DNA from: Mayamaea pseudoterrestris
Lineage: Eukaryota
NCBI GenBank assembly: GCA_027923505.1
Contig: BROI01000026.1
Location: 248,001-312,000, forward strand
Length of the DNA stretch: 64,000 nucleotides
Reading direction: 5' to 3'
In this document: positions 854 to 43,528 of the stretch, piece after piece
Position numbering within the stretch: the first letter of the stretch is position 1
How the letters are laid out: each line of letters begins with the position of its first letter
Translations under genes and position numbers: made by a program
The notes under the pieces: model-generated
Seen by the model: the letters and a program-made list of their open reading frames with translations, nothing else
Database searches by the model: none
Told to the model about the DNA's origin: nothing

Positions 854-1097
854 CTTGTGTCGTGTAGAACAAACAGAGCGCCAATCAAGAGTCTATATCG
901 TTCATCTTTCGTGATAATTTGACGAGAGCAAACGCGATGAGCCACTTTGAGTACCGGTACATCCTCGCACCGGTATTCGTTGGATACTGCTTCGCGCTTC
1001 GCAGATTTCGACCATGGCAGAACCGCAGAGATTTGGGGCAGCGGAGCAACTCATGTCATGGATTGCTTTTGCAGTTTGTGATTGAGACACTCGAAAA

Positions 1098-3619
1098 ATG
1101 GATGATGATGACATTGCCGAGCTTTGGGGAGAGGAGGTGAGAAGATTGGCTTGCTAGCAACACTTGAACCTTTAGTGGAAGAGAGTCATGCGCCGAAATG
1201 CATGTTCAATCCTTCTCATCTTGAGGCAATTTGTTTCATATCGTATCATCTTCCTCACGCTTTTAAACTTGTTCAGCCCGACTGGGTTCGCGAATTTAAA
1301 GCGACTTCCGAGGATGACGATGAAGCAACCGGAGAGGATGAGGATGCGGACGAATTAGCTCCGGCCCAGCACGTCATGGTGCTCATTGACTGCGCTCCAT
1401 CCATGTTTCAAGACTTGAATGCAACGAATGATGCCGACAATGCTCAAACTGATTTTGACTCCACAAGGACTAGTATGACTGCCATGGACTGGAGCCTCCA
1501 GGCGTTCAAGCAACTTTATCGCGACGCCATGAAGTCGGCAGTCATTCACAAAGCCGGCAAGCGGAATGGAATTGGCGCTCTTTTGTACAATACTCGCGCC
1601 AGAGAGCCTCTCGTCATGGATCAAGTCAAAAAGAAGCTACTTGTAAAGGAAGAAAAGGCAGAGCATGATGAAAGTGACGACACGGACGACGATGACTATG
1701 ACAGCTCCATTTCAAGGATTGATACAGTGCATGAACTCGTACCACTAGACATTCCAAACACGCCCATGCTCCAGCGAGTCTTGGCTACATTGCCGGATCA
1801 AATCACCCATGAACGTCGAATCGATATAGCGGCAGAATTTGGACATGTCACGAGCGACCATGTCGATGATGACGATGACTGCAAGTATGACTCTCATGTG
1901 CAGCTGCCCATTTATCGAGGCCTCGAACAAGCCAAAAAAATTCTTGATGCGGCCAAATGCGTTCGACACAAGCCGAACAAGGTCAAGGGCAAAATGACTA
2001 TGCCACCCGACTCGATGCAGATTTGGATACTTACGAATCAAGACAAGAACCCTTGCCATGGTGATGCGGAAATGTTGGCCAAAATCAAGGAGCGCATTGA
2101 AGAGTTGGATCCGATCAAGGTCTACATTTGGCAGCTACCGACGATCGAAATGATGGTGCCGGATATTGCAGAAGATATGGAGGACGCGACTGAGCACGAG
2201 TGCGCTGATCTTGTCTGCAAGCTGATTCCTAATCCATTCTTTACAAACGTTGGAATGGTTCGACCGAGGCAGTCTGAGGAGACGCCCCTGGATCAGGACA
2301 ATTTCACTCGCGTCACTTTTCGTCTCAACTTGAACCTCCGACCCTCGTTCAGTGTCCCGTTGCTTCTGCCGAATTGGAAAAGTAACCCAGATTACCCTGG
2401 AATCCAGCTTGACTTGTACAAAATTGTCAAAAAGGCATCCAAGCCGACTGCGTTGCGCTTCCATAACGAGACTGGACAATTGATGGCGCGCACCACCAAG
2501 ATTACGACGGAGAATGAGCTCATTGAGGTTGGCGAGTCGATTACTGGACACGGCTATCGTCAAATTCTGCCGGAGGATCGGATTAAGCTGTTTGCACCAT
2601 TGCGCGGCGGCAAGGACAATCCACTTTACGTGGAGATGCGTCCGAACGACCTTGTTGTTATGAAACGAGCATGCAATGGCAATCCTGACTTTGCTAGTCT
2701 TGTTCTCAGTGGATTCAAGCCGCGTGATCGGGTTCGGTTCTTTGATTCCATTGGCGAATGCTACTTTATGTACCCGCAAGAGTCCAAAGTCGCTGGCAGC
2801 AGCAAAGCCTTTGCGCAACTTTTTTACGCAATGCAGCGAAAGAATGTTTTGGCTGTTGGCGAAATGTTGACACGCGTGTCAGCCACGTCTCGTTGCGTCG
2901 CCTTTTGGCCCGTCACTAATGACGGAACTTCGAACCTGCCGCCTCAAGAAGGAATGGTTATGGTGTATCTGCCGTTTCAAGATGAGTGTCGCACCTTGCC
3001 CCCGGATAAAGATTACGCGGCTCGTATGAGCAGCGGCCGCCAGTTGGATGCGATGGATGTCGATGGACCTGATCCAGTGGTTAGCCATGACGTGGCTTTG
3101 TCGTCATCATCCGCTCCTGCCTTCGTATCAAGTGCACTAGTGGATGCGACGGTTGAATTAATCAAGAAGCAGTCTTTGAATGACCGTGTCTTGGGCGTGG
3201 ACTTTGAGAATGCTTACATTACCGAATTTTACAACTACTTGGAGAGCCAATCTCTTGGCACCCATTGGGAGCCGACCAACGATTACGATACGATTATGAC
3301 GGAGGAGCACGAACGAGCTATTCTGGATGCAGTTGGCGAACAAATCGAGGCTATCAAGAATCTTTTACCCGACGACGAAAAGGCGACTGGCAAGCGGAAG
3401 TCTGTGGTGTCGGCCGATCCCGACGCGGGTGATACTGGCATTGACTGGGAGCAGGAGTTTGATGACGGGCGAATCGGCAAGGTCACTGTCCCCAATTTGA
3501 AAAAGTACTGCCAAGCGCATGGCTTGACTCGAACGGGCAACAAAGGTGATCTTGTCCAACGTGTGTGCGACCATATTGCTGAGCGTCGAGCGGCGTACAA
3601 GGCAGTCAAGCAAGAATGA
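1098..3619 (+). CDS. KU70: Ku70 (NHEJ DNA end-binding subunit): vWA, beta-barrel and C-terminal SAP domain; 2 exons (1098-1136, 1277-3619)
   Basis: Motifs VMVLIDCAPSM (vWA), LSGFKP, FMYPQESKVAGSSKAF, VYLPFQDECR, FEN, and SAP-like KVTVPNLKKYCQAHGLTRTGNKGDLVQRV. Phase-0 intron GTGAGA...TTCAG (1137-1276) joins MDDDDIAELWGEE to PDWVREF. Confidence 0.92.
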
Positions 3620-3768
3620 GGGACTTCTAGACGGTTCCATGCTTTGCAAGTAAAATTGAAGGTGGATGTTGCCGGCTGTTGGGACAAGACCAATTTGGTC
3701 GAGTAGTTTGCAACGACAGAGAGTTGGCGTAATATACAAAGGTTCATTTCATTATATACAAGTAATTT

Positions 3769-4959
3769 CTACCTTTTGCGCATGACCGCAAGATAGCCCT
3801 CATCGTTGTCTTTGATGGAACCATCGACAGCCGGTGCCACAACTAGTTCAAGCCCAACGCTCTCGCCATAGTTGGCAAGCTCATGCTCATCTGGAAGCTT
3901 CCTCTTAACAAGAACAGGATTTGCTTCAGCCTGCTTGGCGACATGGATGCCACCCTGCGGGTGGACAACTACCAACGTTCCGTTTGTTCGCAGCAGACTT
4001 GCAGCTTTGCCGAGTGCGGCTAGTGGATCAGGAAAGTCATGGAGCGCTGCGCAAAAGATAATGCCATCATATTTTGCACTGCTTGCATATTCATGGACAA
4101 AGTCTGCGGCGTGAAACTCAACGTTTGGATAGAGCTCTTGCGCATTGCGAATCATTTCTTCACTCAAATCGACGCCGCATATTTGCGCTGGCTTCATATT
4201 CGCCTTCGTTAGATGCGGAACAAGAGCACCATATCCGCAACCAACGTCGAGACATTTCGCATTGTCGCTTCCGACGATTGATTCGGCCAAGACAGCGCAG
4301 GCCCGATCAACTCGTTGCGCAATGTCACTCGGCATGCTTCCAATGATACTCCGGGCAGCCTTTGCATCGGCGGATGCGTCCCACGTAGCTCTTTGTAACG
4401 CATTGTGAATATCGTCTTCGGTGATGGAATGCTCCGCTAAAAGCTCGGCCAGCATTGCTTTGGCCCGATGCGAGACTTGTAATTCCTGCTCGTTCATGCT
4501 CGCTTGTTGAAGGAGCGAGAGTCTCGCCATTTGTGCATCCCATTGCTTGATTTGCTTATATAATTGCACTGCCATGTTCATGTGAGGTGGCAGACTTTGA
4601 ATAGTATGTTCGATGCGTCTTTGGGTCGATTGAGCAATTTCCTGTGACGACGTTCCACCGTATGTTTTCTGAAGCTTCTTCAAGATGGCTTGTTTCGATG
4701 GTGGCTTGGATTTTTGAGAATCTCTTGACCCAAAACCACTAGGTTTCGCTCCAGCAAAGCCTTTGGCATTTAATCTTGTCGACAAATCATTAGTTGGTTG
4801 TCGTAAGGGATGGTAAGGGGTATAAAGTTGGTTGGCAAAGGCCGCAAAATTCGTCGTTTGTGTTCGTCCTTGACAATAAAATGCACTAGCAGCTGAAACG
4901 ACTGCATAGAACCAAACAGTAAACCATAATGTTACTCTTTCAACTTGACAAGCTTGCAT
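3769..4959 (-). CDS. Class I SAM-dependent methyltransferase, probably plastid-targeted
   Basis: 396-aa ORF with LDVGCGYG motif I, GVDLSEEMI and YDGIIF. Hydrophobic N-terminus followed by ASAF (diatom-type bipartite presequence). Confidence 0.8.
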   Translation of the reverse strand: MQACQVERVTLWFTVWFYAVVSAASAFYCQGRTQTTNFAAFANQLYTPYHPLRQPTNDLSTRLNAKGFAGAKPSGFGSRDSQKSKPPSKQAILKKLQKTYGGTSSQEIAQSTQRRIEHTIQSLPPHMNMAVQLYKQIKQWDAQMARLSLLQQASMNEQELQVSHRAKAMLAELLAEHSITEDDIHNALQRATWDASADAKAARSIIGSMPSDIAQRVDRACAVLAESIVGSDNAKCLDVGCGYGALVPHLTKANMKPAQICGVDLSEEMIRNAQELYPNVEFHAADFVHEYASSAKYDGIIFCAALHDFPDPLAALGKAASLLRTNGTLVVVHPQGGIHVAKQAEANPVLVKRKLPDEHELANYGESVGLELVVAPAVDGSIKDNDEGYLAVMRKR

Positions 4960-5103
4960 AGTATACGTGCTTGATTGACATTTAGAATCGCTTTTCTTTT
5001 TTTTTTATGTTTGGCGTCGCTACCCGAGAGTGTGGAAATGCCTCGGATGTCGTCATGAGTATCCGGCTTAGAGCGGATGCATTGAGGAGCCCGCCCTAGG
5101 GAC

Positions 5104-5501
5104 ACCTGTAGATTCCTACAGGTACACAGAGAGCCACAGTCACATCATGGATGACGCAGGCAATAGCCGCTGCGACAGTAGTTGGAGGCGTCTCCACCGA
5201 CTTGCACCGCAGCAGCCATTCCCTTCGGATCAGCTCTTGTAACCAATAGCTTCTCCGTTTTGCTCCCGCCCACCCACCCGGGTTGTGGATAATCCTGCGC
5301 AGCAGGATTCTCCTCAGGCGTCATCCATGACGTGTCTTTGGCTTTGGGAACCCGGAGCTACGCTCCGCGCTCCCTGAGACCATGCGACCTGACATCTCGA
5401 CCCCTGATCGCAAGCAAGTCTGACTGCGCCATACCGCGCCCATTCGGGAAACACACAAGCAGCTGAACGACGGAGGGCAATCTGCACTCGTGCAGATTGC
5501 C
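5104..5501 (-). other. Hairpin-rich non-coding element, candidate structured RNA or element terminus
   Basis: Perfect hairpins at 5104-5123, 5291-5309, 5353-5367 and 5476-5501. Long imperfect inverted repeat 5132-5157/5318-5343; inner stem 5162-5174/5208-5220. Several plus-strand A-C mismatches become G-U pairs on the minus strand. Confidence 0.5.
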
Positions 5502-5541
5502 GGCTGGAGTCTTTTAAGAACCGGTTTGAATTATTGCGGTA

Positions 5542-8500
5542 GCTAGTGATGAATGCATTGCAATTTTGACATGACATCATGAAACAATGCCTGTTAACTG
5601 CCAGCTATAAATATACACCCCTCTGGCTGCTGGAGTGGGTTATGGCAGCCAGATACTGTGGACAAGCCTGGGGACACGAAATTCTGGCAGTCCTTGTTGA
5701 AGAACTTGGAGACTACACGGACTAGTGATGAATGCATTGCACCTTTGACATCATGACACAATGCCTGTCAACTGCCAGCTATCAATTTACACCTTACTGG
5801 CAGTTCGAGTGGGTTATGGCAGCCAGCTACTGTGGACAAGCCTGGGGACATGAAATTCTGGTAGTTCCTGTCACAGAACTTGGAGACTTCATGGGCTAGT
5901 GATGAATGCATTGCACCTTTGACATTATAACACAATGCCTGTCAACTGCCAGCTATCAATTTACCCCTCTCTGGTGGTTCGAGTGGGATATGGCCGCCAG
6001 CTACTGTGGACAAGCCTTGGGTTAAAAAATTCTGGCAGTCCCTGTTGCAGAACTTGTAGACTACATGGGCTAGTGATGAATGCATTGCATTTTTGACATC
6101 ATGAAACAATGCCTGTCAACTGCCAGCTATCAATTTATACCTCTCTGGCTGCTGGAGTGGGTTACGCCAGCCAGCTACTGTGGACAAGCCTGGGGACACA
6201 AAATTCTGGTAGTCCCTGTGGCAGAACTTGTAGACTACATGGGCTAGTGATGAATGCATTGCACTTTTGACATCATGACACAATGCCTGTCAACTGCCAG
6301 CTATCAATTGATACCTCTCTGGCTGCTGGAACGGGTTATGGCAGCCAGCTACTGTGGACAAGCCTGGGGACACGAAATTCTGGTAGTCCCTGTCGCAGAA
6401 CTTGGAGACTACATGGGCTAGTGATGAATGCATTGCACTTTTGACATCATGAAACAATGCCTATCAACTGCCAGCTATCAATTTATACCTCTCTGGCTGC
6501 TGGAGTGGGTTACGGCAGCCAGCTACTGTGGACAAGCCTGGGGACATGAAATTCTGGCAGTCCCTGTCGCAGAACTTGGAGACTACATGGGCTAGTGATG
6601 AATGCATTTCAATTTTGACATCATGAAACGATGCCTGTCAACTGCCAGCTATCAATTGATGCCTCTCTGGCTGCTGGAGTGGGTTACGGCAGCCAGCTAC
6701 TGTGGACAAGCCTGGGGACACGAAATTTTTATAGTCCCTGTCGAAGAACTTGGAGGCTACATGGGCTAGTGATGAATGCATTGCACTTTTGACATCATGA
6801 AACAATGCCTGTCAACTGCCAGCTATCAATTGATACCTCTCTGGCTGTTGGAGTGGGTTATGGGAGCCAGTTACTGTGGACAAGCCTGGGGACACAAAAT
6901 TCTGGCAGTCCCTGTCGCAGAACTTGGAGACTACATGGGCTAGTGATGAATGCATTGCACTTTTGACATCATGAAACAATGCCTGTCAACTGCCAGCTAT
7001 TTATTTATACCTCTCTGGCTGCTGGAGTGGGTTACGGCAGCCAGCTACTGTGGACAAGCCTGGGGACACAAAATTCTGGCAGTCCCTGTCGCAGAACTTG
7101 GAGACTACATGGGCTAGTGATGAATGCATTTTAATTTTGACATCATGAAACAATGCCTATCAACTGCCAGCTATCAATTGATACCTCTCTGGCTGCTGGA
7201 GTGGGTTATGGCAGCCAGCTACTGTGGACAAGCCTGGGGACACGAAATTCTGGTAGTCCCTGTCGCAGAACTTGGAGGCTACATGGGCTAGTGATGAATG
7301 CATTGCACTTTTGACATCATGACACAATGCCTGTTAACTGCCAGCTATCAATTGATACCTCTCTGGCTGCTGGAATGGGTTATGGCAGCCAGCTACTGTG
7401 GACAAGCCTGAGGACACGAAATTCTGGTAGTCCCTGTCGCAGAACTTGGAGACTACATGGGCTAGTGATGAATGCATTGCACTTTTGACATCATGAAACA
7501 ATGCCTATCAACTGCCAGCTATCATTTGATACCTCTCTGGCTGCTGGAGTGGGTTACGGCAGCCAGCTACTGTGGACAAGCCTGGGGACACAAAATTCTG
7601 GCAGTCCCTGTCGCAGAACTTGGAGACTACATGGGCTAGTGATGAATGCATTTCATGAATGAAATGCCATTGCCAGCTATCAATTGATGCCTCTCAGACA
7701 ATGCCTGTCGCAGAACTTGGAGACTACATGGGCTAGTGATGAATGCATTGCACTTTTGACATCATGATACAATGCCTGTCAACTGCCAGCTATCAATTTA
7801 TACCTCTCTGGCTGCTGGAGTGGGTTACGGCAGCCAGCTACTGTGGACAAGCCTGGGGACACGAAATTCTGGTAGTCCCTGTCACAGAACTTGGAGACTA
7901 CAACATGGGCTAGTGATGAATGCATTGCACTTTTGACATCATGAAACAATGCCTGTCAACTGCCAGCTATCAATTGATACCTCTCTGGCTGCTGGAACGG
8001 GTTATGGCAGCCAGCTACTGTGGACAAGCCTGGGGACACGAAATTCTGGCAGTCCCTGTCGCAGAACTTGGAGACTACATGGGCTAGTGATGAATGCATT
8101 GCACTTTTGACATCATGAAACAATGCCTATCAACTGCCAGCTATCATTTTTACCTCTCTGGCTGCTGGGGTGGGTTATGGCAGCCAGCTACTGTGGACAA
8201 GCCTGGGGACACGAAATTCTGGCAGTCCTTGTCGCAGTACTTGGAGACTACATGGACTAGTGATGAATGCATTGCACTTTTGGCATCATGAAACGATGCC
8301 TGTCAATTGCCAGCTATCAATTGATGCCTCTCTGGCTGCTGGAGTGGGTTACGGCAGCCAGCTACTGTGGACAAGCCTGGGGACACGAAATTTTTATAGT
8401 CCCTGTCGAAGAACTTGGAGGCTACATGGGCTAGTGATGAATGCATTGCACTTTTGACATCATGAAACAATGCCTGTCAACTGCCAGCTATCAATTGATA

Positions 8501-11500
8501 CCTCTCTGGCTGCTGGAGTGGGTTATGGCAGCCAGCTACTGTGGACAAGCCTGGGGACACAAAATTCTGGCAGTCCCTGTCGCAGAACTTGGAGACTACA
8601 TGGGCTAGTGATGAATGCATTGCACTTTTGACATCATGAAACAATGCCTGTCAACTGCCAGCTAACAATTTGTACCTCTCTGGCTGCTGGAGTGGGTTAT
8701 GGCAGCCAGCTACTGTGGACAAGCCTAGAGACACAAAATTCTGGCAGTCCCTGTCGCAGAACTTGGAGGCTACATGGGCTAGTGATGAATGCATTGCACC
8801 TTTGACATCATGAAACAATGCCTGTCAACTGCCAGCTATCAATTTATACCTCTCTGGCTGTTGGAGTGGGTTATGGCAGCCAGCTACTGTGGACAAGCTT
8901 GGGGACATGAAACTCTGGCAGTCCCTGTCCCAGAACTTGTAGACTACATGGGCTAGTGATGAATGCATTGCATTTTTGACATCATGAAACAATGCCTGTC
9001 AACTGCCAGCTATCAATTGATACCTCTCTGGCTGCTGGAGTGGGTTACGGCAGCCAGCTACTGTGGACAAGCCTGGGGACACGAAATTCTGGTAGTCCCT
9101 GTCACAGAACTTGGAGACTACAACATGGGCTAGTGATGAATGCATTGCACTTTTGACATCATGACACAATGCCTGTCAACTGCCAGCTATCAATTGATAC
9201 CTCTCTGGCTGCTGGAACGGGTTATGGCAGCCAGCTACTGTGGACAAGCCTGGGGACACGAAATTCTGGCAGTCCCTGTCGCAGAACTTGGAGACTACAT
9301 GGGCTAGTGATGAATGCATTGCACTTTTGACATCATGAAACAATGCCTGTCAACTGCCAGCTATCAATTTATACCTCTCTGGCTGCTGGAGTGGGTTATG
9401 GCAGCCAGCTACTGTGGACAAGCCTGGGGACACGAAATTCTGGCAGTCCCTGTCGCAGAACTTGTAGACTACATGGGCTAGTGATGAATGCATTTCAATT
9501 TTGACATCATGAAACGATGCCTGTCAACTGCCAGCTATCAATTGATGCCTCTCTGGCTGCTGGAGTGGGTTACGGCAGCCAGCTACTGTGGACAAGCCCG
9601 GGGACAGTAAATTTTTATAGTCCCTGTCACAGAACTTGGAGGCTACATGGGCTAGTGATGAATGCATTGCACTTTTGACATCATGAAACAATGCCTGTCA
9701 ACTGCCAGCTATCAATTGATACCTCTCTGGCTGTTGGAGTGGGTTATGGGAGCCAGTTACTGTGGACAAGCCTGGGGACACGAAATTCTGGCAGTCCTTG
9801 TCGCAGAACTTGGAGACTACATGGGCTAGTGATGAATGCATTGCACTTTTGACATCATGAAACAATGCCTGTCAACTGCCAGCTATTTATTTATACCTCT
9901 CTGGCTGCTGGAGTGGGTTACGGCAGCCAGCTACTGTGGACAAGCCTGGGGACACAAAATTCTGGCAGTCCCTGTCGCAGAACTTGGAGGCTACATGGGC
10001 TAGTGATGAATGCATTGCACTTTTGACATCATGAAACAATGCCTGTCAACTGCCAGCTATTTATTTATACCTCTCTGGCTGTTGGAGTGGGTTATGGCAG
10101 CCAGCTACTGTGGACAAGCCTGGGGACATGAAATTCTGGCAGTCCCTGTCACAGAACTTGTAGACTACATGGGCTAGTGATAAATGCATTGCATTTTTGA
10201 CATCATGAAACAATGCCTGTCAACTGCCAGCTATCAATTGATACCTATCTGGCTGCTGGAGTGGGTTATGGCAGCCAGCTACTGTGGACAAGCCTGGGGA
10301 CACGAAATTCTGGTAGTCCCTGTCGCAGAACTTGGAGGCTACATGAGCTAGTGATGAATGCATTGCACTTTTGACATCATGAAACAATGCCTGTCAACTG
10401 CCAGCTATTTATTTATACCTCTCTGGCTGCTGGAGTGGGTTATGGCAGCCAGATACTGTGGACAAGCATGGGGACACAAAATTTTGGCAGTCCCTGTTGC
10501 AGAACTTGGAGACTACATGGGCTAGTGATGAATGCATTTCAATTTTGACATCATGAAACAATGCCTGTCAACTGCCAGCTATCAATTGATACCTCTCTGG
10601 CTGTTAGAGTGGGTTATGGGAGCCAGTTACTGTGGACAATCCTGGGGACAAGCATGGGGACACAAAATTCTGGGAGTCCCTGTCACAGAACTTGGAGACT
10701 ACATGGGCTAGTGATGAATGCATTGCACCTTTGACATCATGAAACAATGCAAGTTAACTGCCAGCTATCAATTGATACCTCTCTGGCTGCTGGAGTGGGT
10801 TACGGCAGCCAGCTACTGTGGACAAGCTTGGGGACATGAAATTCTGGCAGTCCCTGTTACAGAACTTGAAGACTACATGGGCTGGTGATGAATGCATTGC
10901 ATTTTTGACATCATGAAACAATGCCTGTCAACTGCCAGCTATCAATTGATACCTCTCTGGCTGCTGGAGTGGGTTATCGCAGCCAGCTACTGTGGACAAG
11001 CCTGGGGACACGAAATTGTGGCGGTCCTACAGGCAGAACTTGGAGACTAAATGGGCTAGTGATGTATGCATTGCACTTTTAATATCATGAAACAATGCCT
11101 GTCAACTGCCAGCTATCAATTTATACCTCTCTGGCCATTGGAACGGGTTATGGCAGCCAGCTTCTGTGGACAAGCCTGGGGACAGGAAATTCTGGGAGTC
11201 CCTGTCGCAGAACTTGAAGACTACATGGGCTGGTGATGAATGGATTGCACCTTTGACATCATGAAACAATGCATGGCAACTGCCAGCTATCAATTAATGC
11301 CTCTCTGGCTGTTGGAGTGGGTTATGGCAGCCAGCTACTGTGGACAAGCTTGGGGACATGAAATTCTGGCAGTCCCTGTCGCAGAACTTGTAGACTACAT
11401 GGGCTAGTGATGATTGCATTGCACTTTAACATCATGAATCAATGCCTGTCAATTGCCAGCTATCAATTGATACCTCTCTAGCTGCTGGAACGGGTTATGG

Positions 11501-14500
11501 CAGGCAGCTACTGTGGACAAGCCTGGGGACACAAAATTCTGGCAGTCCCTGTCACAGAACTTGTAGACTACATGGGCTAGTGATGAATGCATTGCACTTT
11601 TGACATCATGAAACAATGCCTATCAACTGCCAGCTATCAATTTATACCTCTCTGGCTGCTGGAGTGGGTTACGGCAGCCAGCTACTGTGGACAAGCCTGG
11701 GGACACGAATTCTGGCAGTCCCTGTCGCAGAACTTGGAGACTACATGGGCTAGTGATGAATGCATTTCAATTTTGACATCATGAAACGATGCCTGTCAAC
11801 TGCCAGCTATCAATTGATGCCTCTCTGGCTGCTGGAGTGGGTTACGGCAGCCAGCTACTGTGGACAAGCCTGGGGACACGAAATTTTTATAGTCCCTGTC
11901 GCAGAACTTGGAGGCTACATGGGCTAGTGATGAATGCATTGCATTTTTGACATCATGAAACAATGCCTGTCAACTGCCAGCTATCAATTGATACCTCTCT
12001 GGCTGCTGGAGTGGGTTATGGCAGCCAGCTACTGTGGACAAGCCTGGGGACACGAAATTCTGGCAGTCCCTGTCACAGAACTTGGAGACTACATGGGCTG
12101 GTGATGAATGCATTGAACTTTTGACATCATGAAACAATGCTTGTCAACTGCCAGCTATCAATTTATACCTCTCTGGCTGCTGGAGTGGGTTATGGCAGCC
12201 AGATACTGTGGACAAGCATGTGGACACGAAATTTTGGCAGTCCCTGTTGCAGAACTTGGAGACTACATGGGCTAGTGATGAATGCATTTCAATTTTGACA
12301 TCATGAAACAATGCCTGTCAACTGCCAGCTATCAATTGATACCTCTCTGGCTGCTGGAGTGGATTATTATGGCAGCCAGCTACTTTGGACAAGCCTGGGG
12401 ACACAAAATTTTTATTGTCCCTGTTGCAGAACTTGGAGGCTACATGGGCTAGTGATGAATGCATTGCACTTTTGACATCATGAAACAATGCCTGTCAACT
12501 GCCAGCTATCAATTGATACTTCTCTGGCTGTTGGAGTGGGTTATGGCAGCCAGTTACTGTGGACAAGCCTGGGGACAAGCCTGGGGACACGAAATTCTGG
12601 CAGTCCCTGTCGCAGAACTTGGAGACTACATGGGCTAGTGATGAATGCATTGCACTTTTGACATCATGACACAATGCCTGTCAACTGCCAGCTATCAATT
12701 GATACCTCTCTGGCTGCTGGGGTGGGGTACAGGCCACCTGCTATTGTGGACAAGCCTGGGGACACGAAATTCTGGCAGTCCCTGTGGCAGAACTTGGAGA
12801 CTACATGAGCTAGTGATGAATGCATAGCACTTTTGACATCATGAAACAATGCCTGTCAACTGCCAGCAATCAATTTACACCTCGCTGGCTGCTGGAGTGG
12901 GTTACGGCAGCCAGCTACTGTGGACAAGCCTGGGGACATGATATTCAGGCAGTCCCTGTGGCAGAACTTGGAGACTACATGAGCTAGTGATGAATGCATA
13001 GCACTTTTGACATCATGAAACAATGCCTGTCAACTGCCAGCAATCAATTTACACCTCGCTGGCTGCTGGAGTGGGTTATGGCAGCCAGCTACTGTGGACA
13101 AGCCTGGGGACATGAAATTCTGGCAGTCCCTGTGGCAGAACTTGGAGACTACATGAGCTAGTGATGAATGCATTGCACTTTTGACATCATGAAACAATGC
13201 CTGTCAACTGCCAGCAATCAATGTATACCTCTCTGGCAGCTGGAGTGGGTTCCGGCAGCCTGCTATTGTGGACAAGCCTGGGGACACGAAATTCTGGCAG
13301 TCCCTGTGGCAGAACTTGGAGACTACATGAGCTAGTGATGAATGCATTGCACTTTTGACATCATGAAACAATGCCTGTCAACTGCCAGCAATCAATGTAT
13401 ACCTCTCTGGCTGCTGGAGTGGGTTACGGCAGCCTGCTATGTTGGACAAGCCTGGGGACACGAAATTCTGGCAGTCCCTGTGGCAGAACTTGGAGACTAC
13501 ATGAGCTAGTGATGAATGCATAGCACTTTTGACATCATGAAACAATGCCTGTCAACTGCCAGCAATCAATGTATACCTCTCTGGCAGCTGGAGTGGGTTC
13601 CGGCAGCCTGCTATTGTGGACAAGCCTGGGGACACGAAATTCTGGCAGTCCCTGTGGCAGAACTTGGAGACTACATGAGCTAGTGATGAATGCATAGCAC
13701 TCTTGACATCATGAAACAATGCCTGTCAACTGCCAGCAATCAATGTATACCTCTCTGGCAGCTGGAGTGGTTATGGCAGCCAGCTACTGTGGAAAAGCCC
13801 GGGGACACAAAATTCTGGCAGTCCCTGTCGCAGAACTTGTTGACTACATGGGCTAGTGATGAATGCATTGCACTTTTGACATCATGAAACAATGCCTGTC
13901 AACTGCCAGCTATCAATTGATGCCTCTCTGGCTGCTGGAGTGGGTTACAGCAGCCAGCTACCGTGGACAAGCTTGGGGACATGAAATTCTGGCAGTCCCT
14001 GTCGCAGAACTTGGAGACTACATGGGCTAGTGATGAATGCATTGCACTTTTGACATCATGACACAATGCCTGTCAACTGCCAGCTATCAATTGATACCTC
14101 TCTGGCTGCTGGAACGGGTTATGGCAGCCAGCTCCTGTGGACAAGCCTTGGGACACGAAATTCTGGCAGTCCCTGTCACAGAACTTGGAGACTACATGGG
14201 CTAGTGATGAATGCATTGCACTTTTGACATCATGAAACAATGCCTGTCAACTGCCAGCTATCAATTTATACCTCTCTGGCTGCTGGAGTGGGTTATGGCA
14301 GCCAGATACTGTGGACAAGCATGTGGACACGAAATTTTGGCAGTCCCTGTTGCAGAACTTGGAGACTACATGGGCTAGTGATGAATGCATTTCAATTTTG
14401 ACATCATGAAACAATGCCTGTCAACTGCCAGCTATCAATTGATACCTCTCTGGCTGCTGGAGTGGGTTATTATGGCAGCCAGCTACTTTGGACAAGCCTG

Positions 14501-16530
14501 GGGACACAAAATTTTTATTGTCCCTGTTGCAGAACTTGGAGGCTACATGGGCTAGTGATGAATGCATTGCACTTTTGACATCATGACACAATGCCTGTCA
14601 ACTGCCAGCTATCAATTGATACCTCTCTGGATGTTGGAGTGAGTTATGGCAGCCAGTTACTGTGGACAAGACTGGGGACAAGCCTGGGGTCACGAAATTC
14701 TGGCAGTCCCTGTCACAGAACTTGGAGACTACATGGGCTAGTGATGAATGCATTGCACTTTTGACATCGTGAAACAATGCCTGTCAACTGCCAGCTATCA
14801 ATTTATACCTCTCTGGCTGCTGGGGTGGGTTATGGCAGCCAGCTACTGTAGACAAGCCTGGGGACACGAAATTCTGGCAGTCCTTGTTGCAGTACTTGGA
14901 GACTACATGGGCTAGTGATGAATGCATTGCACTTTTGACATCATGAAACAATGCATGTCAACTGCCAGCTATCAATTTACACCTCTCTGGCTGTTGGAGT
15001 GGGTAAAGGCAGCCAGCTACTGTGGACAAGCATGGGGACACAAAATTGTGGCGGTCCTACAGGCAGAAATTGGAGATTACATAGGCTAGTGATGAATGCA
15101 TTGCACTTTTGACATCATGAAACAATGCCTATCAACTGCCAGCTATCAATTTATACCTCTCTGGCTGCTGGAGTGGGTTACGGCAGCCAGCTACTGTGGA
15201 CAAGCCTGGGGACACGAAATTCTGGCAGTCCCTGTCGCAGAACTTGGAGACTACATGGGCTAGTGATGAATGCATTTCAATTTTGACATCATGAAACGAT
15301 GCCTGTCAACTGCCAGCTATCAATTGATGCCTCTCTGGCTGCTGGAGTGGGTTACGGCAGCCAGCTACTGTGGACAAGCCTGGGGACACGAAATTTTTAT
15401 AGTCCCTGTCGCAGAACTTGGAGGCTACATGGGCTAGTGATGAATGCATTGCACTTTTGACATCATGAAACAATGCCTGTCAACTGCCAGCTATCAATTT
15501 ATACCTCTCTGGCTGTTGGAGTGGGTTACGGCAGCCAGCTACTGTGGACAAGCCTGGGGACACGAAATTCTGGCAGTCCCTGTCGCAGAACTTGTAGACT
15601 ACATGGGCTAGTGATGAATGCATTGCACTTTTGACATCATGACACAATGCCTGTCAACTGCCAGTTATCAATTGATACCTCTCTGGCTGTTGGAGTGGGT
15701 TATGGGAGCCAGTTACTGTGGACAAGCCTGGGGACACAAAATTGTGGTAGTCCCTGTCGCAGAACTTGGAGGCTACATGGGCTAGTGATGAATGCATTGC
15801 ACCTTTGACATCATGAAACAATGCCTATCAACTGCCAGCTATCAATTTATACCTCTCTGGCTGCTGGAGTGGATTACGGCAGCCAGCTACTGTGGACAAG
15901 CCTGGGGACACGAAATTCTGGCAGTCCCTGTCGCAGAACTTGGAGACTACATGGGCTAGTGATGAATGCATTTCGATTTTGACATCATGAAATGATGCCT
16001 GTCAATTGCCAGCTATCAATTGATGCCTTTGGCTGTAGGGCACCTACTCGAAGCTTGGGGACACGAAATTTTTATAGTCCCTGTCAAAGAACTTGGAGGC
16101 TACATGGGCTAGTGATGAATGCATTGCACTTTTGACATCATGAAATGCCTGTCAACTGCCAGCTATCAATTGATACCTCTCTGGCTGTTGGAGTGGGTTA
16201 TGGGAGCCAGTTACTGTGGACAAGCCTGGGGACACAAAATTCTGGCAGTCCCTGTCGCAGAACTTGGAGACTACATGGGCTAGTGATGAATGCATTGCAC
16301 TTTTGACATCATGAAACAATGCCTGTCAACTGCCAGCTATCAATTGATACCTCTCTGGCTGCTGGAACGGGTTATGGCAGCCAGCTACTGTGGACAAGCC
16401 TGGGGTCACAAAATTCTGGCAGTCCCTGTCGCAGAACTTGGAGGCTACATGGGCTAGTGATGATTGCATTGCACCTTTGACATCATGAAACAATGCCTAT
16501 CAACTGCCAGCTATTTTTTTATACCTCTCT
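5542..16530. repeat. Satellite A: tandem array of 174-bp monomers, about 63 copies
   Basis: The monomer-start motif (G/A)CTAGTGATGAATGC recurs at 5721, 5895, 6069, 6243, 6417 (period 174). By-eye consensus: GCTAGTGATGAATGCATTGCACTTTTGACATCATGAAACAATGCCTGTCAACTGCCAGCTATCAATTGATACCTCTCTGGCTGCTGGAGTGGGTTATGGCAGCCAGCTACTGTGGACAAGCCTGGGGACACGAAATTCTGGCAGTCCCTGTCGCAGAACTTGGAGACTACATGG. The array is cut mid-monomer by the LTR at 16531. Confidence 0.98.
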
Positions 16531-16859
16531 TGACACAATATTATTGAGTTGAGTTGACCTGCGTCTCATGACAAGACGGTTAGCTACCTGTGTTTTGTAT
16601 GCATTTAATCCTGTGCAGGGTTGAGTCACACTTGTGACCGAATCCTCACATACATGAGTGAAATCGCTGACGATCGAGGCGTGAACCTCGACCGTGAACC
16701 CAGTGAGAACGAGAAAGAAGCGCACGAGTAGAGTAGCGAGTAACATGCACTATTCTAGCAATTGAGTTTGTTTGTTTGCTTTACGCTGGACGAAGAGGTT
16801 GATCGCTCCTAGTCCATTGTAGTCGCTGGAATAAAGGTTCGTCTGATATTATCGTGTCA
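16531..16859 (+). repeat. LTR1 (329 bp)
   Basis: Begins TGACAC, ends GTGTCA (6-bp terminal inverted repeat); AATAAA near the 3' end; repeated at 21447 and 27635. Confidence 0.96.
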
Positions 16860-16873
16860 GATTAACAGTCTTG
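16860..16873 (+). promoter_or_regulatory. Putative primer-binding site complementary to the tRNA-Asn(GUU) anticodon arm (also at 21776-21789)
   Basis: GATTAACAGTCTTG abuts the LTR. Its reverse complement CAAGA-CTGTTAA-TC reads as a 5-nt stem strand, a canonical 7-nt anticodon loop with GTT, and 2 nt that pair back with the stem. Confidence 0.7.
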
Positions 16874-17078
16874 CTAGCTTGTCTTGACCTGAGAGAGCTG
16901 TGCGAAAGAGAGAGAGTGAAAGAATCGAGAAATTGAGAGAGAAAGAGCAGATTCCTTGCGGCGTCGTCAATCCGAATACTTGGCACGAGCGCGTAGAACA
17001 GGATCGTATAAGGCTCGACCGCATTGAGAGCGGTTGTTGTGTGAGAAAGGACTTGCGGAAAGCGAGGTATTCACTATC

Positions 17079-19730
17079 ATGGTTGCGATTACTGCGGAAG
17101 CCTTGCAGCTTCTCTGCACGAACGTTTTCGGACGAGACATCCAAGAAGCGTTCTTGTTTTGGAATGTAACCACCACGACCCAGATGTTGAGATTGACCAA
17201 GGAGCAACTTGAAGCCCCCTACTGGGTCGACAGAGCCGCCATCCCAGCTGGCGTTGAGCAAGAAGAAGGCGCGCAACTCGACGATGCGCCGCCGGACGAC
17301 GAGCCGGCCGAAGAACCGGCCGAAGAACAAGAAGCCGCCGTCCCAGAACGATACGAAGCGACATTAGCACCAGTCTACGTGAACCTTATCCTCGATGCAT
17401 GTGAATGGTTCAACATGCACGACGGACCCCCGAACACCAGGAAGTGGGCGTTGCTTGATTTAGGCAAGCTCGAGCGATTCCAAGAGAAACTCGCCGAACA
17501 AGAAGTCGGTCGAAAGCGTGAAGAAGGACGCTACGTCCTCGAGGCCAAGAAGAAGCAAGCCGAGCTACTTGCCAAGCAACTCGAAAATGAGACCATCAAG
17601 GCTGAGAAGGCCGAAAAGGAAGAAGATGCCAAGGGTCGTTTCTCGAACCTCAAGACGAAACGAGACTACAAGGACTACAAAACGTTCCAACATCCCCACG
17701 CGTGGTTGAGTTGGAGCGCGTCTACCAAGGCAATCGCCAAGCTCCATGGCTGTTCTAACGTGCTCGACAGCAAGTACGTACCAGTCACGGAAGAAGAGAA
17801 ATTAGAGTTCGAGAATCAGCAAGTCTTCATGTACACTGCGTTTCGCAATTGTCTCGAAGTCCCTGGACACCAGTCGCTCCTGATGAAGTACGGCGACAAG
17901 TCTGACGCTCAAAGCGTCTATCGCGAACTCGCGACCAAGTTTGGTTCCGGCGAGTTAGCTACCATCCAAGCGAACGAACTGCAGGCCAAGCTTGCGACGA
18001 TTCGCCTAGATTCGACCTGGACGAAAGGACACTACAAGTTCCTAAACTACATCGAACAGCTCATGAAGAATCTCGAAGAGTTCCGTCCTGGAGTGACGGA
18101 TGACAAGAAGAAGTACTACTGGCTCCGAGCTGCAGTGGAGGGCGACGAAGAATTCGGCCCCACGTGCACGACGTTCGACCAGCACCTGTTATTTGAACGA
18201 CGACGCATCATTAGTGCAAACGGTGACCCAGACGCCGTCGTGACGGAAGATTATGACTATCTTTTCGACATGTTGTCGCAGCAGGCTTTGCGCGTCGACA
18301 ACAAGAACGCCAAGTTGAACAAGGGCAAGAAGAACGCCGACCGCCAAGCGAACAACGCGAACACTTCCGGGCAAGGACGTGGTAATGGACGCGGTTCCGG
18401 TCGCGGCGGAGGACGCGGCGGCCAAGGCGGACGCGGCGGTGGACGAGACGGTGGACGTGGCACCCAATCGGGGCGCGGTTCCGGAGGACGAGGCTCTTCC
18501 GCGCCACTACCAGCAGCCGGTACGCAAGCGCATCGGGAACGATTCCCTGGCGATTATCTGAACTTTGAACAGTTGTTACAGAACCCCTGGTCGTACATGT
18601 GTCGACTCGGCCGACTTAACGAGGACGAATACGCTCAGCTCATGGCTCGACGCGAAGCCGTCCCAAGACCCGCCACCACAAGACGCGCGAACAACGGTAA
18701 CCGCGCGAATAACCAGCAGTCACAAGCGGCTGCCTCGGTGCCTGGTACAATCTTGTATCAGAATGACGCTGTCTCGATCGCCCCGACGACAGCCACTCAA
18801 GGTGCACCGGATGACATGATTAGATCTTTCCTTGCGAACGCCGCGTCGTCTCGCACTCAAGCTGCGAATAACACCCAGCAAGAGTTTATGGGAAGCGACG
18901 GCCGTCGGTACCGCGCAATGGTATTGGTGCGCTACACTGTGAATCGAGCTCGCAGCAACGAGACCCGCCAAGGATCGCTGATTGACGGCGGTGCGAACGG
19001 TGGACTCGCTGGAAGCGATATGAGAATCTTGAGTACTACCAACCACACGTGTAACGTGACAGGTTTGAGCGACCACACGGTTCGCGACCTCCAAGTCGGA
19101 ACTGGCGTCGCATTGATTGAGACTCGGACTGGACCCATTATCGGTCAGTTCAACCAGTATGCTTTGTACGACGGTGCTGAATCCATTCATGCTCCATCGC
19201 AGCTTCGTTCGTTCGGCCATCTGATCGACGACGTCGCTCGCTCCCAGAATGGAGCACAAGCCATTGTCACCAGTTGTGGCAAGACCATCCCCTTGGCGAT
19301 CCGTGACGGCTTGCCTCGTATGGATATCGTCCGCCGACGGGACGCAGAGTTGGAAATGTATCCGACGGTCATTTTCTCTCGCGGACACCCTTTGGGATCC
19401 GCGCTGGATAATGAATGGAGCGAAGAAGAACTTGAGTTTAATCGTCCGACGACGGTGGAAGAAACCCGCGGTTTCGTCGACGCCCGCATGGAGACTGGCG
19501 ACGCCACCTACCGGAACAACATGAATTCAGTGGAACGTGTGGTGCAGTATGTCGATCCGCAATCAGGCTGTCCGACCGCCAAGCCAATGCACACCCGCAT
19601 AATGCCACAAGAACCTGACTCCAGCCCGACCCTACCTTGGCCACGCCACTTGAACGAGTCAAGCGCACCATTAAGAATACGACACAGCTTTTCCGTGCAT
19701 CGGCACACACCCCATTTCGCCACACTTTAA
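17079..19730 (+). CDS. Copia gag-protease ORF, copy 1 (frameshifts out before/within integrase)
   Basis: Track ORF 17034-19730, first ATG at 17079. Gag-like helical region, RGG-rich segment, aspartic protease motif LIDGGANGGLAG. Confidence 0.9.
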   Translation: MVAITAEALQLLCTNVFGRDIQEAFLFWNVTTTTQMLRLTKEQLEAPYWVDRAAIPAGVEQEEGAQLDDAPPDDEPAEEPAEEQEAAVPERYEATLAPVYVNLILDACEWFNMHDGPPNTRKWALLDLGKLERFQEKLAEQEVGRKREEGRYVLEAKKKQAELLAKQLENETIKAEKAEKEEDAKGRFSNLKTKRDYKDYKTFQHPHAWLSWSASTKAIAKLHGCSNVLDSKYVPVTEEEKLEFENQQVFMYTAFRNCLEVPGHQSLLMKYGDKSDAQSVYRELATKFGSGELATIQANELQAKLATIRLDSTWTKGHYKFLNYIEQLMKNLEEFRPGVTDDKKKYYWLRAAVEGDEEFGPTCTTFDQHLLFERRRIISANGDPDAVVTEDYDYLFDMLSQQALRVDNKNAKLNKGKKNADRQANNANTSGQGRGNGRGSGRGGGRGGQGGRGGGRDGGRGTQSGRGSGGRGSSAPLPAAGTQAHRERFPGDYLNFEQLLQNPWSYMCRLGRLNEDEYAQLMARREAVPRPATTRRANNGNRANNQQSQAAASVPGTILYQNDAVSIAPTTATQGAPDDMIRSFLANAASSRTQAANNTQQEFMGSDGRRYRAMVLVRYTVNRARSNETRQGSLIDGGANGGLAGSDMRILSTTNHTCNVTGLSDHTVRDLQVGTGVALIETRTGPIIGQFNQYALYDGAESIHAPSQLRSFGHLIDDVARSQNGAQAIVTSCGKTIPLAIRDGLPRMDIVRRRDAELEMYPTVIFSRGHPLGSALDNEWSEEELEFNRPTTVEETRGFVDARMETGDATYRNNMNSVERVVQYVDPQSGCPTAKPMHTRIMPQEPDSSPTLPWPRHLNESSAPLRIRHSFSVHRHTPHFATL

Positions 19731-21446
19731 GTCGCGATTCCCGCCGCCAATGTGGTTCGTTTCCATGACGATCCGGCGACAGATACCTGGTTTTCAAGGA
19801 AGCCGCCTTTAACGACGGAATCCCGGCCATGGCGGATGCAAGATGATGCAACTGTTCGTCGGCAAGAAGAGTCTGCTGACGAGGATACCCACTGAGAACC
19901 CGAGTGACATGCCCATGGCGCTCGAAGACTTCATTCGAGACATTGGTGCTCCCGACTTGCTCATTAGCGATAACTCGCGAGTGCAGCTCGGGAAGCAAGT
20001 TGAAACCTTGTTGCGATTCTACGCGATTCGTGACCAACAGAGCGAGCCGGATACCAGAACCAGAACCCTGCCGAGCGCGTGCATCCAGAAGTCAAGTCAT
20101 CAGTCCAGAACATCATGAACCGTGGGCGGGCGCGCCGGCTGGAGCCTGGCTCCTATGCGCGCTGTACGTAATCGCCTTATTTAACAATCTGGCAACCGAG
20201 TCCCTCAACTGGAAGACCCCTACTGAAGCCGCCTTCAACCGAGTACCCGACATTTCGCCGTTCCTGCAGTTCAAGTTCTGGGAACGAGTCCTGTACGAAG
20301 CTGGAGCCGACGAGCCGCCGACATTTCCTAACACCAAGGAAGCAGCAGGACGCTGGGTCGGCATTGCAGAGAACAAGGGTGACATCCTCACGTACCAAGT
20401 CCAATCCGATCGGACTGGAATGATTGTTGTCCGATCCAACGTTCGCCCCTTCTCCGAAGGGCGTAACCTACGCGCTGAAGCTGAAAGCGCTCCTGAACCC
20501 GAGTCCGAACGACCGCTGTTCGGACCTGTCTTCGCGCGCGCCCGCGCGCGAACGAGTCCAAGTCGAAACTGTCGACGAGTTTGGACGATGATTATGACCT
20601 AGTCGGTCCGGTGTTTGAACCGACCTTACACCGACCCCAGCGCCTGATTCTGGGGAACCGTGGATGAACGCATTCACGTTGGAAAGCGCTGCCGAGTTAG
20701 CCGGTTTGGATCCCGACGGACCCATGCCGTCCTTTACTCCGGCTGAACTGATGGGACGCACTGTCCTTCTTGACGAGGAAGACGGCTCCACGCGACGTTA
20801 CAAGGTTATCGAGCAACTGAACGATTGCGATGAAGCTAACCACAAGATTATCAAGTTCCGATTGAGTCTCGGCGACGGCGACGTCGACGAGCTTATTACC
20901 TACAACGAACTAGCCGACCTGTGCGAGCGGCAAGATTCTTTACGACTGGGGGACGATGACAACGACGACCAGTACTACAAGTTTGATTTCATTGACGGAC
21001 ATGAAGGTCCACTGACACAAGCCGACACTACGTATCGCGGCTCATCCTACAACTTGCTCATCCAATGGGCAAATGGCGAGAAGACCTGGGAGCCACTCGC
21101 ATTGATCATCAAGTCCGACCCTGTGACTGTTGCCGAGTATGGCAAGCGCAAGGGTATGCTGGAAAAGGATGGATGGAAGCGCTTGAGGCGCATGGCAGGA
21201 CGCACTAAAATGTTTAACCGCATGTGCAAGGCTGCAAAGAAGAACCGTGTCCAAGAAGCGCGTTTCAAGTTTGGCGTTCAAGTTCCAAAGCGGGCCCGCC
21301 CACCGCTGAAACACACGTGGGCGACCCGTCAAGACTGAGACGGAGCAGCTACGAAGTACGACACTTTCATCGACAAGGGCATCGGTGCCTTCATGGAAAG
21401 TGACTGGAAGCGCATCAACGCGCATCTTGTTTTCGACTGCAAGAAC
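19731..21446 (+). pseudogene. Frameshifted integrase, chromodomain-like module and start of RT, copy 1; truncated by LTR2
   Basis: Fragments in different frames: DTWF, FIRDIGAPDLLISDNS, SLNWKTP...PDISPFLQFKFWERV, GRWVGIAENKGDILTY, YNLLIQWANGEKTWEPL, KFGVQVP, HLVFDCK. Confidence 0.85.
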
Positions 21447-21775
21447 TGACACAATATTATTGAGTTGAGTTGACCTGCGTCTCATGACAAGACGGTTAGC
21501 TACCTGTGTTTTGTATGCATTTAATCCTGTGCAGGGTTGAGTCACACTTGTGACCGAATCCTCACATACATGAGTGAAATCGCTGACGATCGAGGCGTGA
21601 ACCTCGACCGTGAACCCAGTGAGAACGAGAAAGAAGCGCACGAGTAGAGTAGCGAGTAACATGCACTATTCTAGCAATTGAGTTTGTTTGTTTGCTTTAC
21701 GCTGGACGAAGAGGTTGATCGCTCCTAGTCCATTGTAGTCGCTGGAATAAAGGTTCGTCTGATATTATCGTGTCA
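21447..21775 (+). repeat. LTR2 (329 bp), internal
   Basis: Same sequence as LTR1 at offset 4916; preceded by RT sequence rather than a polypurine tract. Confidence 0.96.
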
Positions 21776-21994
21776 GATTAACAGTCTTGCTAGCTTGTCT
21801 TGACCTGAGAGAGCTGTGCGAAAGAGAGAGAGTGAAAGAATCGAGAAATTGAGAGAGAAAGAGCAGATTCCTTGCGGCGTCGTCAATCCGAATACTTGGC
21901 ACGAGCGCGTAGAACAGGATCGTATAAGGCTCGACCGCATTGAGAGCGGTTGTTGTGTGAGAAAGGACTTGCGGAAAGCGAGGTATTCACTATC

Positions 21995-27963: not shown

Positions 27964-29058
27964 AGTGGTGCCTTCTAGGCAGATGGCCCTTCAACTGGCA
28001 CTCAAAAGGATTTTCCTACTTGCCGTCAATGAGCTACTTGGATGCCATAGAGGGGTTTCACCACACCAAATGAGCATATGGGACAAAGGTTTGGCCATGC
28101 AGGTGCTCATAGGATGCTCCATTGGTGAATCAGTGGCACCTTCTAGGCAGATGGCCCTTCATCTGGCGCTCAGAAGGTTTTTCCTTCTCGCCAAAACTGA
28201 GCTACTTAAATGCCATGGAGGGGTTTCACCCCACCAAATGAACATACAAGACAAGGGTTTGGCCATGCAGGTGCTCATAGGATGCTCCATTGGTGCACCA
28301 GTGGCGCCTTCTAGGCAGATGACCCATCAAGTGGCGCTCAGAAGCATTTTCCTTATCGCCGTCACTGAGCTACTTGGATGCCATGGAGGGGTTTCACCAC
28401 ACCAAATGAACGTACGGGACAAGGTTTTGGCCATGCAGGTGCTCATAGGATGCTCCATTGGTGCGCCAGTGGCAACTTCAAGGCAGATGGCCCTTCAACT
28501 GGCGCTCAGAAGCATTTTCCTTCTCGCCATCACTGAGCTACTTGGATGCCATGGAGGGAATACACCACACCAAATGATTATATGGGACAAGGGTTAGGCC
28601 ATGCAGGCGCTCATAGGATGCTCCATTGGTGCACCAGTGGCACCTTCTAGGCAGATGACCCGTCAAGTGGCGCTCAGAAGGTTTTTCCTCCTCGCCATCA
28701 CACTTGGAAGCCATGGAGGGGTTTCACCAGACGAAATGAACATACAGGACAAGTGTTTGGCCATGCAGGTGCTCATTGGATGCTTCATTGGTGCACCTGT
28801 GGCGCCATCTAGGCAGATGATGTCCCTTCAACTGGTGCTCTGAAGGTTTTACCTTCTCGCCGCCACTGAGCTCGCGATGGCATGGAGGGATATACACCAC
28901 GCTATTGGTGTATATGGACAAGGTTATCCAGATGCAGGTGTCAATAGGATGCTCCATTGGTGCCACCAGATGGCGAGTTCTGGCAATTATATGACCATGG
29001 CTTATAGCATCAGCAACCGCATCAGTGTTAAGGTTTTGCTTCTCACCATCACTGAGCA
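27964..29058. repeat. Satellite B: about 6 tandem copies of a 168-bp monomer, decaying rightwards
   Basis: GGCCATGCAGG recurs at 28093, 28261, 28429, 28597 (period 168) and 28759 (162, 6-bp deletion). Degenerate copies continue to about 29058. Confidence 0.93.
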
Positions 29059-43331: not shown

Positions 43332-43528
43332 GTTTCATACTATAGCCTCGTATGACGTAATTGACACTGGCACTCGTTTCGTATTATAGCCTTGCGACGT
43401 AATTGACACTGGCACTCGTTTCATACTATTGCCTTGTGACGTAATTGACAGTGGCACTCGTTTCATACTATTGCCTTGTGACTTAATTGACACTGGCACT
43501 CGTTTCGTAGTATTGCCTGCTGACGTAC
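43332..43528. repeat. 42-bp minisatellite, about 4.6 copies
   Basis: GTTTC(A/G)TA unit starts at 43332, 43376, 43418, 43460, 43502. Unit GTTTCATACTATTGCCTTGTGACGTAATTGACACTGGCACTC. Confidence 0.92.

Follow-up and report, generated by a model that had tools for sequence, protein, structure and literature searches.

A Highly Self-Complementary 438-bp Non-Coding Repeat in Mayamaea pseudoterrestris That May Have Spread through a Circular or Tandem Intermediate

Introduction

Several described systems move or multiply short repeats through circles or joined ends. Helitron circles have precise head-to-tail junctions, according to the part of PMC4778049 that is used here, and joined ends and tandem insertions of Helitrons are described in the corresponding part of PMC5148889. 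Complex satellites can invade the edges of another satellite by way of extrachromosomal circular DNA (eccDNA) and microhomology; in Drosophila simulans, Rsp-like inserts are found beside the 1.688 satellite with 7 bp of microhomology (both from the portion of PMC7403614 cited here). Replitrons are Rep/HUH elements with short direct terminal repeats, and the cited portion of PMC10288648 reports none detected in diatoms or oomycetes. Retrozymes and other genome-encoded circular RNAs carry hammerhead ribozymes (PMC5680766). Literature on diatom retrozymes, hairpin Helitrons, and non-autonomous tandem repeats was searched by titles and the starts of abstracts, and no element like the one below is described there, which is no proof of absence.

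Here, a repeat unit in a 64,000-nucleotide stretch of Mayamaea pseudoterrestris DNA (the window; all positions below are positions in it) is compared with these systems. A preliminary description, made from the sequence alone, had noted a densely paired element of about 400 nt next to a satellite array, and had proposed either an unannotated structured non-coding RNA (ncRNA) or the structured terminus of a mobile element that seeded the array. The best reading of the data is that nucleotides 5062–5499 represent a non-coding repeat family with a 438-bp unit, of which they form exactly one, and that this family is moved or copied as DNA.

Sequences and Contigs Compared

The window was treated as eukaryotic nuclear DNA. 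Contigs of four public runs, here called X1 to X4, were compared with it over positions 1000–5545. The runs belong to one study and three samples, and their contigs possibly include the source of the window. Contig observations refer to the pieces, differences, and loose ends listed in this comparison. X2 and X4 are considered RNA-like and X1 and X3 DNA-like; this assignment is inferred from contigs that skip or keep an intron. In contigs of X2 and X4, a GT..AG stretch at 1135–1274 in a Ku ORF is missing, and the contigs break between two convergent genes, while the same intron is kept in an X3 contig and covered in X1.

Limits, Alleles, and Variants of the Unit

The limits of the unit are given by contigs that skip it and by contigs that join its two ends. 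The unit (5062–5499, no strand assigned) is 438 nt long, with a GC content of 0.58. The left flank ends with GAGTA, and the unit starts with TC (TCCGGCT) after this flanking A. It ends with CAGATTG, thus with ATTG, before a flanking C, and the right flank continues as CCGGCTGGAG. The limits 5104–5501 given in the preliminary description need correction: they began 42 nt inside the unit and ended 2 nt beyond it. Each of the six frames contains 2–6 stops per turn of the unit circle, and the unit is thus non-coding. An 88-aa ORF on the minus strand (5314–5580) continues beyond the unit into flanking sequence and gave no Pfam match. The window contains exactly 1.00 unit, with no second copy anywhere in its 64 kb.

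An allele without the unit exists. One X3 contig runs up to 5061, continues with 11 letters that match 5500–5512 with a small deletion, and proceeds from 5513 (side 33). One contig of X1, which shares its sample with X3, skips 5062–5499 (side 46), with the letters between the two parts given as not known. This X1 contig differs from the window also at 4974–5022, and it therefore represents a diverged allele. A single sample provides the clean empty site. Comparison of the empty-site allele with the window sequence reveals no target-site duplication (TSD), and since the comparison allele is diverged, single-base precision at the insertion is not warranted. The allele without the unit retains the right flank, 5500–5545.

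A second X1 allele of similar depth has 49 other letters and 19 gaps in the 482 nt of 3556–4037, and 13 other letters and 6 gaps in the 220 nt of 4753–4972. Such a diverged second allele suggests high heterozygosity or mixed strains.

The opposite arrangement, a head-to-tail junction from 5499 to 5062, is seen in three of the four runs: X1 (side 29), X2 (side 112), and X4 (side 73). The junction contigs of X2 and X4 have zero letters between the two parts and 0 differences from the unit of the window. The side of 29 in X1 falls below the caution line of 30, so that the junction is thinly supported at the DNA level. Two samples thus have the junction in RNA-like material, and a third has it, with weaker support, in DNA-like material. 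RNA carrying the unit seems to exist, and the X2 and X4 junction contigs fit a circle and a transcript of tandem copies alike. In X1, the only contig over 5062–5265 has a depth of 97.9, compared with 15.8–36.1 on the flanking genes, although depth is not copy number.

Contigs break at the limits of the unit, and some of them leave it at 5499 into other sequence, as loose ends. Among the variant contigs listed, 5062–5103, 5214–5357, and 5457–5499 align with the window, whereas 5104–5213 and 5358–5456 are replaced by unlike sequence; the variant joints are 5103 to 5214 and 5357 to 5457. X4 has such variants besides its junction contigs. The unit therefore has diverged variants, which form a mosaic family. 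The exact unit, the unit-less allele, the precise junction, and the mosaic family are most simply explained together by a small non-coding repeat that is copied to new sites as a whole unit.

The sequence CCGGCT is found on the plus strand at the start of the unit (5063–5068, preceded by the T at 5062) and again at 5500–5505, where it forms the first six bases of the right flank. The right-flank copy is identical to bases 2–7 of the unit and is present in the allele without the unit as well. There are 13 plus-strand occurrences of CCGGCT in the 64 kb, including those at 5063 and 5500. We estimate that it would fall by chance on the first flank base (±1) in roughly 6 of 10,000 cases. It is possible that the right-flank CCGGCT served as microhomology or as a target motif. 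Compared with a simple crossover inside a shared core, the match is shifted by one T.

Self-Complementarity and Strand Preference

The four perfect hairpins and two long stems of the preliminary description all lie where it had placed them, based on the sequence and an inverted-repeat search. No strand is assigned to any of them. A perfect 8-bp hairpin with a 4-nt loop at 5104–5123 was found in every fold. The long-range stem consists of a left arm at 5132–5157 and a right arm at 5318–5343, an inverted pair of 26 nt that is 88% complementary, with 160 nt between the arms and pairing at 23 of 26 positions. Its right arm is inside the block 5214–5357, which aligns in the variant contigs too. Nested in it is a 13-position stem with an inner hairpin (5162–5220; arms 5162–5174 and 5208–5220), supported by the sequence, the folds, and a pair census. 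It has 11 Watson–Crick pairs and two A-C positions, which become G-U on the minus strand. An inverted pair at 5284–5316 forms a hairpin with a perfect 8-bp core (5291–5309), within which variant contigs have loose ends at 5296 and 5303. Two variant contigs share the letters of the 5291–5309 stem and differ in the loop; these are three sequences only and do not constitute covariation. A perfect 6-bp hairpin with a 3-nt loop (5353–5367) appears in the folds of both strands. The very 3' end of the unit is a perfect 12-bp palindrome, the terminal hairpin at 5476–5501, whose 12-nt arms are 100% complementary. Its last two paired bases, 5500 and 5501, belong to the flank and not to the unit. The 5' end of the unit has a weak 4-bp hairpin.

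The predicted folding is far stronger than that of shuffled sequences. For 5104–5501 as RNA, the folding energy is −163.5 kcal/mol (z = −6.63) for the plus strand and −198.8 kcal/mol (z = −8.08) for the minus strand, values reached by none of 100 shuffles of either strand. Twelve control stretches of 438 nt from elsewhere in the window, from genes, satellite, and retroelement, gave z-scores between −1.59 and +1.74 on both strands, while the unit in the same control run of 15 shuffles gave −7.04 on the plus strand and −6.21 on the minus strand. With DNA energies, the unit has z-scores of −4.16 (plus) and −7.55 (minus), again with 0 of 100 shuffles as good. With 60 shuffles each, the 438-nt unit reaches −4.99 (plus) and −5.47 (minus) as linear RNA, and −5.80 (plus) and −7.09 (minus) as circular RNA. 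The hairpin-rich character of the sequence is confirmed.

The claim that the element folds better on the minus strand holds in part. The z-score is lower on the minus strand in five of six comparisons and higher in one, the 15-shuffle control run, and the gap is modest. The fold contains 16 G-U pairs on the minus strand and 3 on the plus strand, and the shuffles contain even more, 22.3 and 10.4, respectively; the energy gap in favor of the G+U-rich minus strand is thus largely a matter of base composition. The main stems contain at least six A-C positions that become G-U on the minus strand, versus two or three G-T positions. The preliminary description had counted at least four such A-C mismatches. 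The G-U excess is within the range expected from base composition. The excess of A-C over G-T in the main stems is suggestive, not decisive. The element retains its CpGs, as had been noted: the observed/expected CpG ratio is 0.82, versus 0.18 in the adjacent satellite and 1.03–1.11 in the flanking ORFs.

Comparison with Known Elements

Searches for known families returned little. An Rfam scan of the whole window at gathering scores gave 0 matches. On the linear stretch 4500–6200 with E-values up to 10, there were 7 matches, the best of them at 22 bits (mir-6, with a gathering score of 58). No match comes near the threshold for SRP, RNase P/MRP, snRNA, snoRNA, ribozymes, telomerase RNA, or any other family, in accordance with the preliminary description. 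ARAGORN found 0 tRNA-like genes in 4800–5800. Pattern searches for family copies gave 0 matches in metagenome contigs with two different patterns, 0 in viral contigs, and 0 in prokaryote genome contigs. Neither a Rep nor a helicase domain was found among the 24 window ORFs scanned.

The unit resembles Helitrons in several features. It starts with TC after a flanking A and has no TSD. Its 3' end carries a perfect palindrome, and its 5' end a small hairpin. It also shows a precise head-to-tail junction, as do the Helitrons in the cited parts of PMC4778049 and PMC5148889. In contrast to Helitrons, the unit ends with ATTG instead of CTRR, and the base after the insertion is C instead of T. Its palindrome at 5476–5501 reaches past the end, rather than standing 10–12 nt (or 30–50 nt) before it. 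Besides, the unit is only 438 bp long and is paired over its whole length. Unlike Helitron2, Helentrons, and HINEs, it has no asymmetric terminal inverted repeat: none of the five inverted pairs in 4900–5700 involves 5062–5080. As the unit lacks the CTRR end, the following T, the palindrome spacing, and the asymmetric terminal inverted repeat known from Helitron2, it was not filed as a Helitron.

The Rsp-like satellite moved by eccDNA is the other close system. Within the cited portion of PMC7403614, both cases involve a repeat of a few hundred bp arranged head to tail, and a new copy beside an older, unrelated satellite. Both have short microhomology at the junction, CCGGCT here and 7 bp there, and a whole number of units, as expected of a re-integrated circle. 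The differences, within the same portion, are that a single unit is found here instead of a cluster, and that it lies in a unique spacer 42 nt from the array instead of inside it. The exceptional self-complementarity of the unit has no counterpart in that portion. The Helitron-type route and the eccDNA-satellite route cannot be told apart.

Retrozymes share with the unit the small size, the lack of coding capacity, the high degree of base pairing, the tandem or head-to-tail arrangement, and the RNA-like contigs that span the junction. They differ from it by the hammerhead core, which neither strand of the unit dimer has, a 4-bp TSD (in the plant type), and LTR-like repeats. A hammerhead core is composed of CUGANGA, GAAA, and the cleavage site. 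On the unit dimer, the plus strand contains no CUGANGA, and the minus strand contains one CUGAGGA with no GAAA anywhere. No ribozyme family of Rfam matched the linear copy at E-values up to 10.

Replitrons are similar in that the unit has TCCGGCT at its start and CCGGCT just past its end, and HUH elements generally have hairpins. The absence of a TSD is also seen in most Replitron families (according to the cited portion of PMC10288648). The difference is that the right-hand CCGGCT is present in the unit-less allele as well and thus belongs to the target.

Other identities were considered and rejected. The 438-nt skip is not a spliceosomal intron; it has TC..TG termini when read on the plus strand and CA..GA termini when read on the minus strand, neither of which is spliceosomal. 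Group I introns are usually preceded by U, and here the preceding base is A and no Rfam match was found. Back-splicing was rejected by the absence of AG/GT signals. The inverted repeats are internal (none of the five pairs is terminal) and there is no TSD, which excludes a miniature inverted-repeat transposable element (MITE). A nested MITE derived from the 26-bp inverted repeat was dismissed as well, with no flanking duplication seen by eye. A tRNA-derived SINE was rejected with neither a tRNA-like head nor a TSD. The ends that define Helitrons, MITEs, SINEs, or retrozymes are not those of the unit.

Origin of the Unit

We consider it somewhat probable that the unit is a non-coding mobile repeat whose spread involved a circular or tandem intermediate. 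The most likely route would begin with the joining of the two ends of the unit, giving a circular monomer or a rolling-circle monomer or multimer. The circle would be opened next to its own (T)CCGGCT, and the opened unit would be integrated beside a CCGGCT-like motif in the target without generating a TSD. The nested palindromes would form their folds in a strand that has become single, slightly better in the minus strand than in the plus strand. Candidates for the acting enzyme are a Rep/HUH-type nuclease or the host repair of extrachromosomal circles. Both the movement as a circle, rather than tandem duplication alone, and the role of the hairpins in the intermediate are what we infer. Several points stand against this explanation. 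The contig evidence is from one study, its clean empty site from one sample, and its DNA-level junction is thin. The window has no second copy, and the CCGGCT match is shifted by one T. No known transposon family fits the unit, and the structure over the whole length goes beyond what rolling-circle DNA elements need and is more typical of RNA replicons. As for the two proposals of the preliminary description, the mobile element is nearer the truth than the ncRNA gene, and neither fits as written. The mobile-element proposal is supported in modified form, for a discrete and complete repeat unit instead of the end of something larger.

An RNA-based element stays in consideration, even if it is an unlikely source, on account of the self-complementarity over the whole length, which the circle account leaves unexplained, and of the RNA-like contigs that contain the junction. 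In this case, a highly structured RNA, circular or multimeric and similar to retrozymes or viroids, would have given rise to the unit as its DNA copy, with tandem transcripts that are cut, circularized, and reverse-transcribed. Pairing is dense over all 438 nt, also in the circular form (z = −5.8 for the plus strand and −7.1 for the minus strand), and the minus strand is the better folder in five of six comparisons. The RNA-like runs X2 and X4 have junction contigs identical to the unit of the window, and X4 has variants too. Nevertheless, both strands of the dimer lack the hammerhead core, the linear copy matches no Rfam ribozyme at E-values up to 10, there is no TSD, and the junction is also present in the DNA-like X1, though with a short side. 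A comparably low probability is given to a purely local tandem repeat, whose copy number at one locus would vary among zero, one, and several via unequal exchange or replication slippage. The absent, single, and head-to-tail forms are all present, as this predicts; the window has exactly 1.00 unit, and the CCGGCT after it could be the stub of another unit. What this leaves aside is the occurrence of variants with long unlike stretches and of contigs exiting at 5499, both of which suggest several contexts. The change from one unit to none would also require a deletion on 6 bp of offset homology, and the repeat-rich stretch of the window otherwise consists of unrelated repeats.

It is quite improbable that the unit is a cellular structured ncRNA gene, possibly a member of a small gene family, with a minus-strand transcript. 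The fold z-scores far outside the controls, the at least six A-C positions that become G-U on the minus strand versus two or three of the opposite kind, the retained CpGs, and the RNA-like contigs containing the unit would all suit such a gene. The unit is, however, missing from another allele of the same organism, unlike an essential RNA gene, and its family is mosaic and diverged. It has no Rfam family and no tRNA-like part, the searches of metagenome, viral, and prokaryote collections yielded no relatives, and its G-U excess is within the range of base composition. The unannotated structured ncRNA of the preliminary description is thus not supported as a conventional gene, given the missing Rfam match and relatives and the polymorphic mosaic family. 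A role at the RNA level may still exist, since the junction contigs occur in two RNA-like runs. Chance, that is, a GC-rich spacer with palindromes, has a negligible probability. Short hairpins are common in any sequence, but 0 of 100 shuffles were as good on either strand, 12 of 12 controls stayed within z ±1.8, and the limits of the structured block coincide with those of the presence/absence polymorphism. This reading is ruled out by the shuffles and controls.

It can also be speculated, as a rather doubtful proposal, that the unit is a replicon of a kind undescribed in eukaryotic algae, either a viroid-like retroelement without a ribozyme or a miniature single-strand "peel-and-paste" element. 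In the former case, a 438-nt minus-strand RNA could circularize and be copied back into DNA. In the latter, an HUH-type nuclease could cut beside AGCCGG (in the minus-strand sense), with end hairpins as in the derivatives of prokaryotic IS200/IS605. Either candidate would jointly explain the folding over the whole length, the strand bias, the exact insertion without duplication, the target that mimics the end of the unit, and the junctions in both RNA-like and DNA-like material.

If a mobile repeat with a circular or tandem intermediate is the true explanation, this alga has a small, recently active non-coding element that varies between alleles and lies in the promoter region of a gene. Its ends are now precisely defined, together with an empty site and the sequence of a junction. 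Scans based on sequence only can easily take elements of this sort for structured RNA genes, which is a useful caution. If the circle is RNA or is cut by an HUH nuclease, the mechanism would be extended to a new host group; if host repair has simply moved a satellite monomer, the case would be ordinary.

Genomic Setting

To the left of the unit are two genes. An ORF of the Ku70/80 type with a SAP domain is on the plus strand (1124–3619). The stretch 1135–1274 is a 140-nt GT..AG intron near the start of this Ku70-like gene, and because it is skipped in X2 and X4 contigs, the ORF from 1124 must start in an upstream exon. The second gene is an ORF for a SAM-dependent methyltransferase on the minus strand (3769–4959), and the unit lies 103 nt upstream of its ATG. 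RNA-like contigs of this gene extend to 5011 in X2 and to 4978 in X4. Since they reach to these positions, the unit is inserted in the promoter region of the methyltransferase gene. A long plus-strand T-run, which is an A-run in the methyltransferase sense, occupies 4990–5008, within the RNA-like contig coverage to 5011.

To the right, beyond a 42-nt spacer, is an array of a 174-bp satellite, from 5542 to about 16530 (no strand assigned). The unit has no sequence relationship to this satellite. Its local alignment score with two satellite units is 13, compared with 11.5–12.4 ± 1.8 in shuffles, and such a relationship was rejected. The spacer 5500–5541 is not satellite-like either, with 181 of 300 shuffles scoring as high. 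The idea that the element seeded the array is therefore abandoned: there is no similarity to the satellite, the right flank is retained in the unit-less allele, and the 42-nt spacer is non-satellite.

The array at 5542–16530 is covered by three TRF rows of about 12, 48, and 3 copies, with 91–92% matches and a CpG observed/expected ratio of 0.18. Each satellite unit has a UGAUGA box, and two sub-threshold matches to SNORD60 (20.9 and 19.3 bits, with a gathering score of 42) are most likely due to chance. A 4,916-bp tandem duplication begins exactly at the end of the satellite, with copies at 16531–21446 and 21447–26359 that are 99.9% identical. Its unit has an 898-aa ORF with a gag/protease-like look, including an RGG-rich tract and a protease-like motif, with no Pfam match at E-values up to 1. 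A fragment of a Copia-type reverse transcriptase (RVT_2) is located at 26524–27135. Other tandem repeats are found at 27964–28974 (a 168-bp unit in 6 copies, 83% matches) and at 43332–43527 (a 42-bp unit in 4.6 copies). The remaining part of the window contains ordinary genes.
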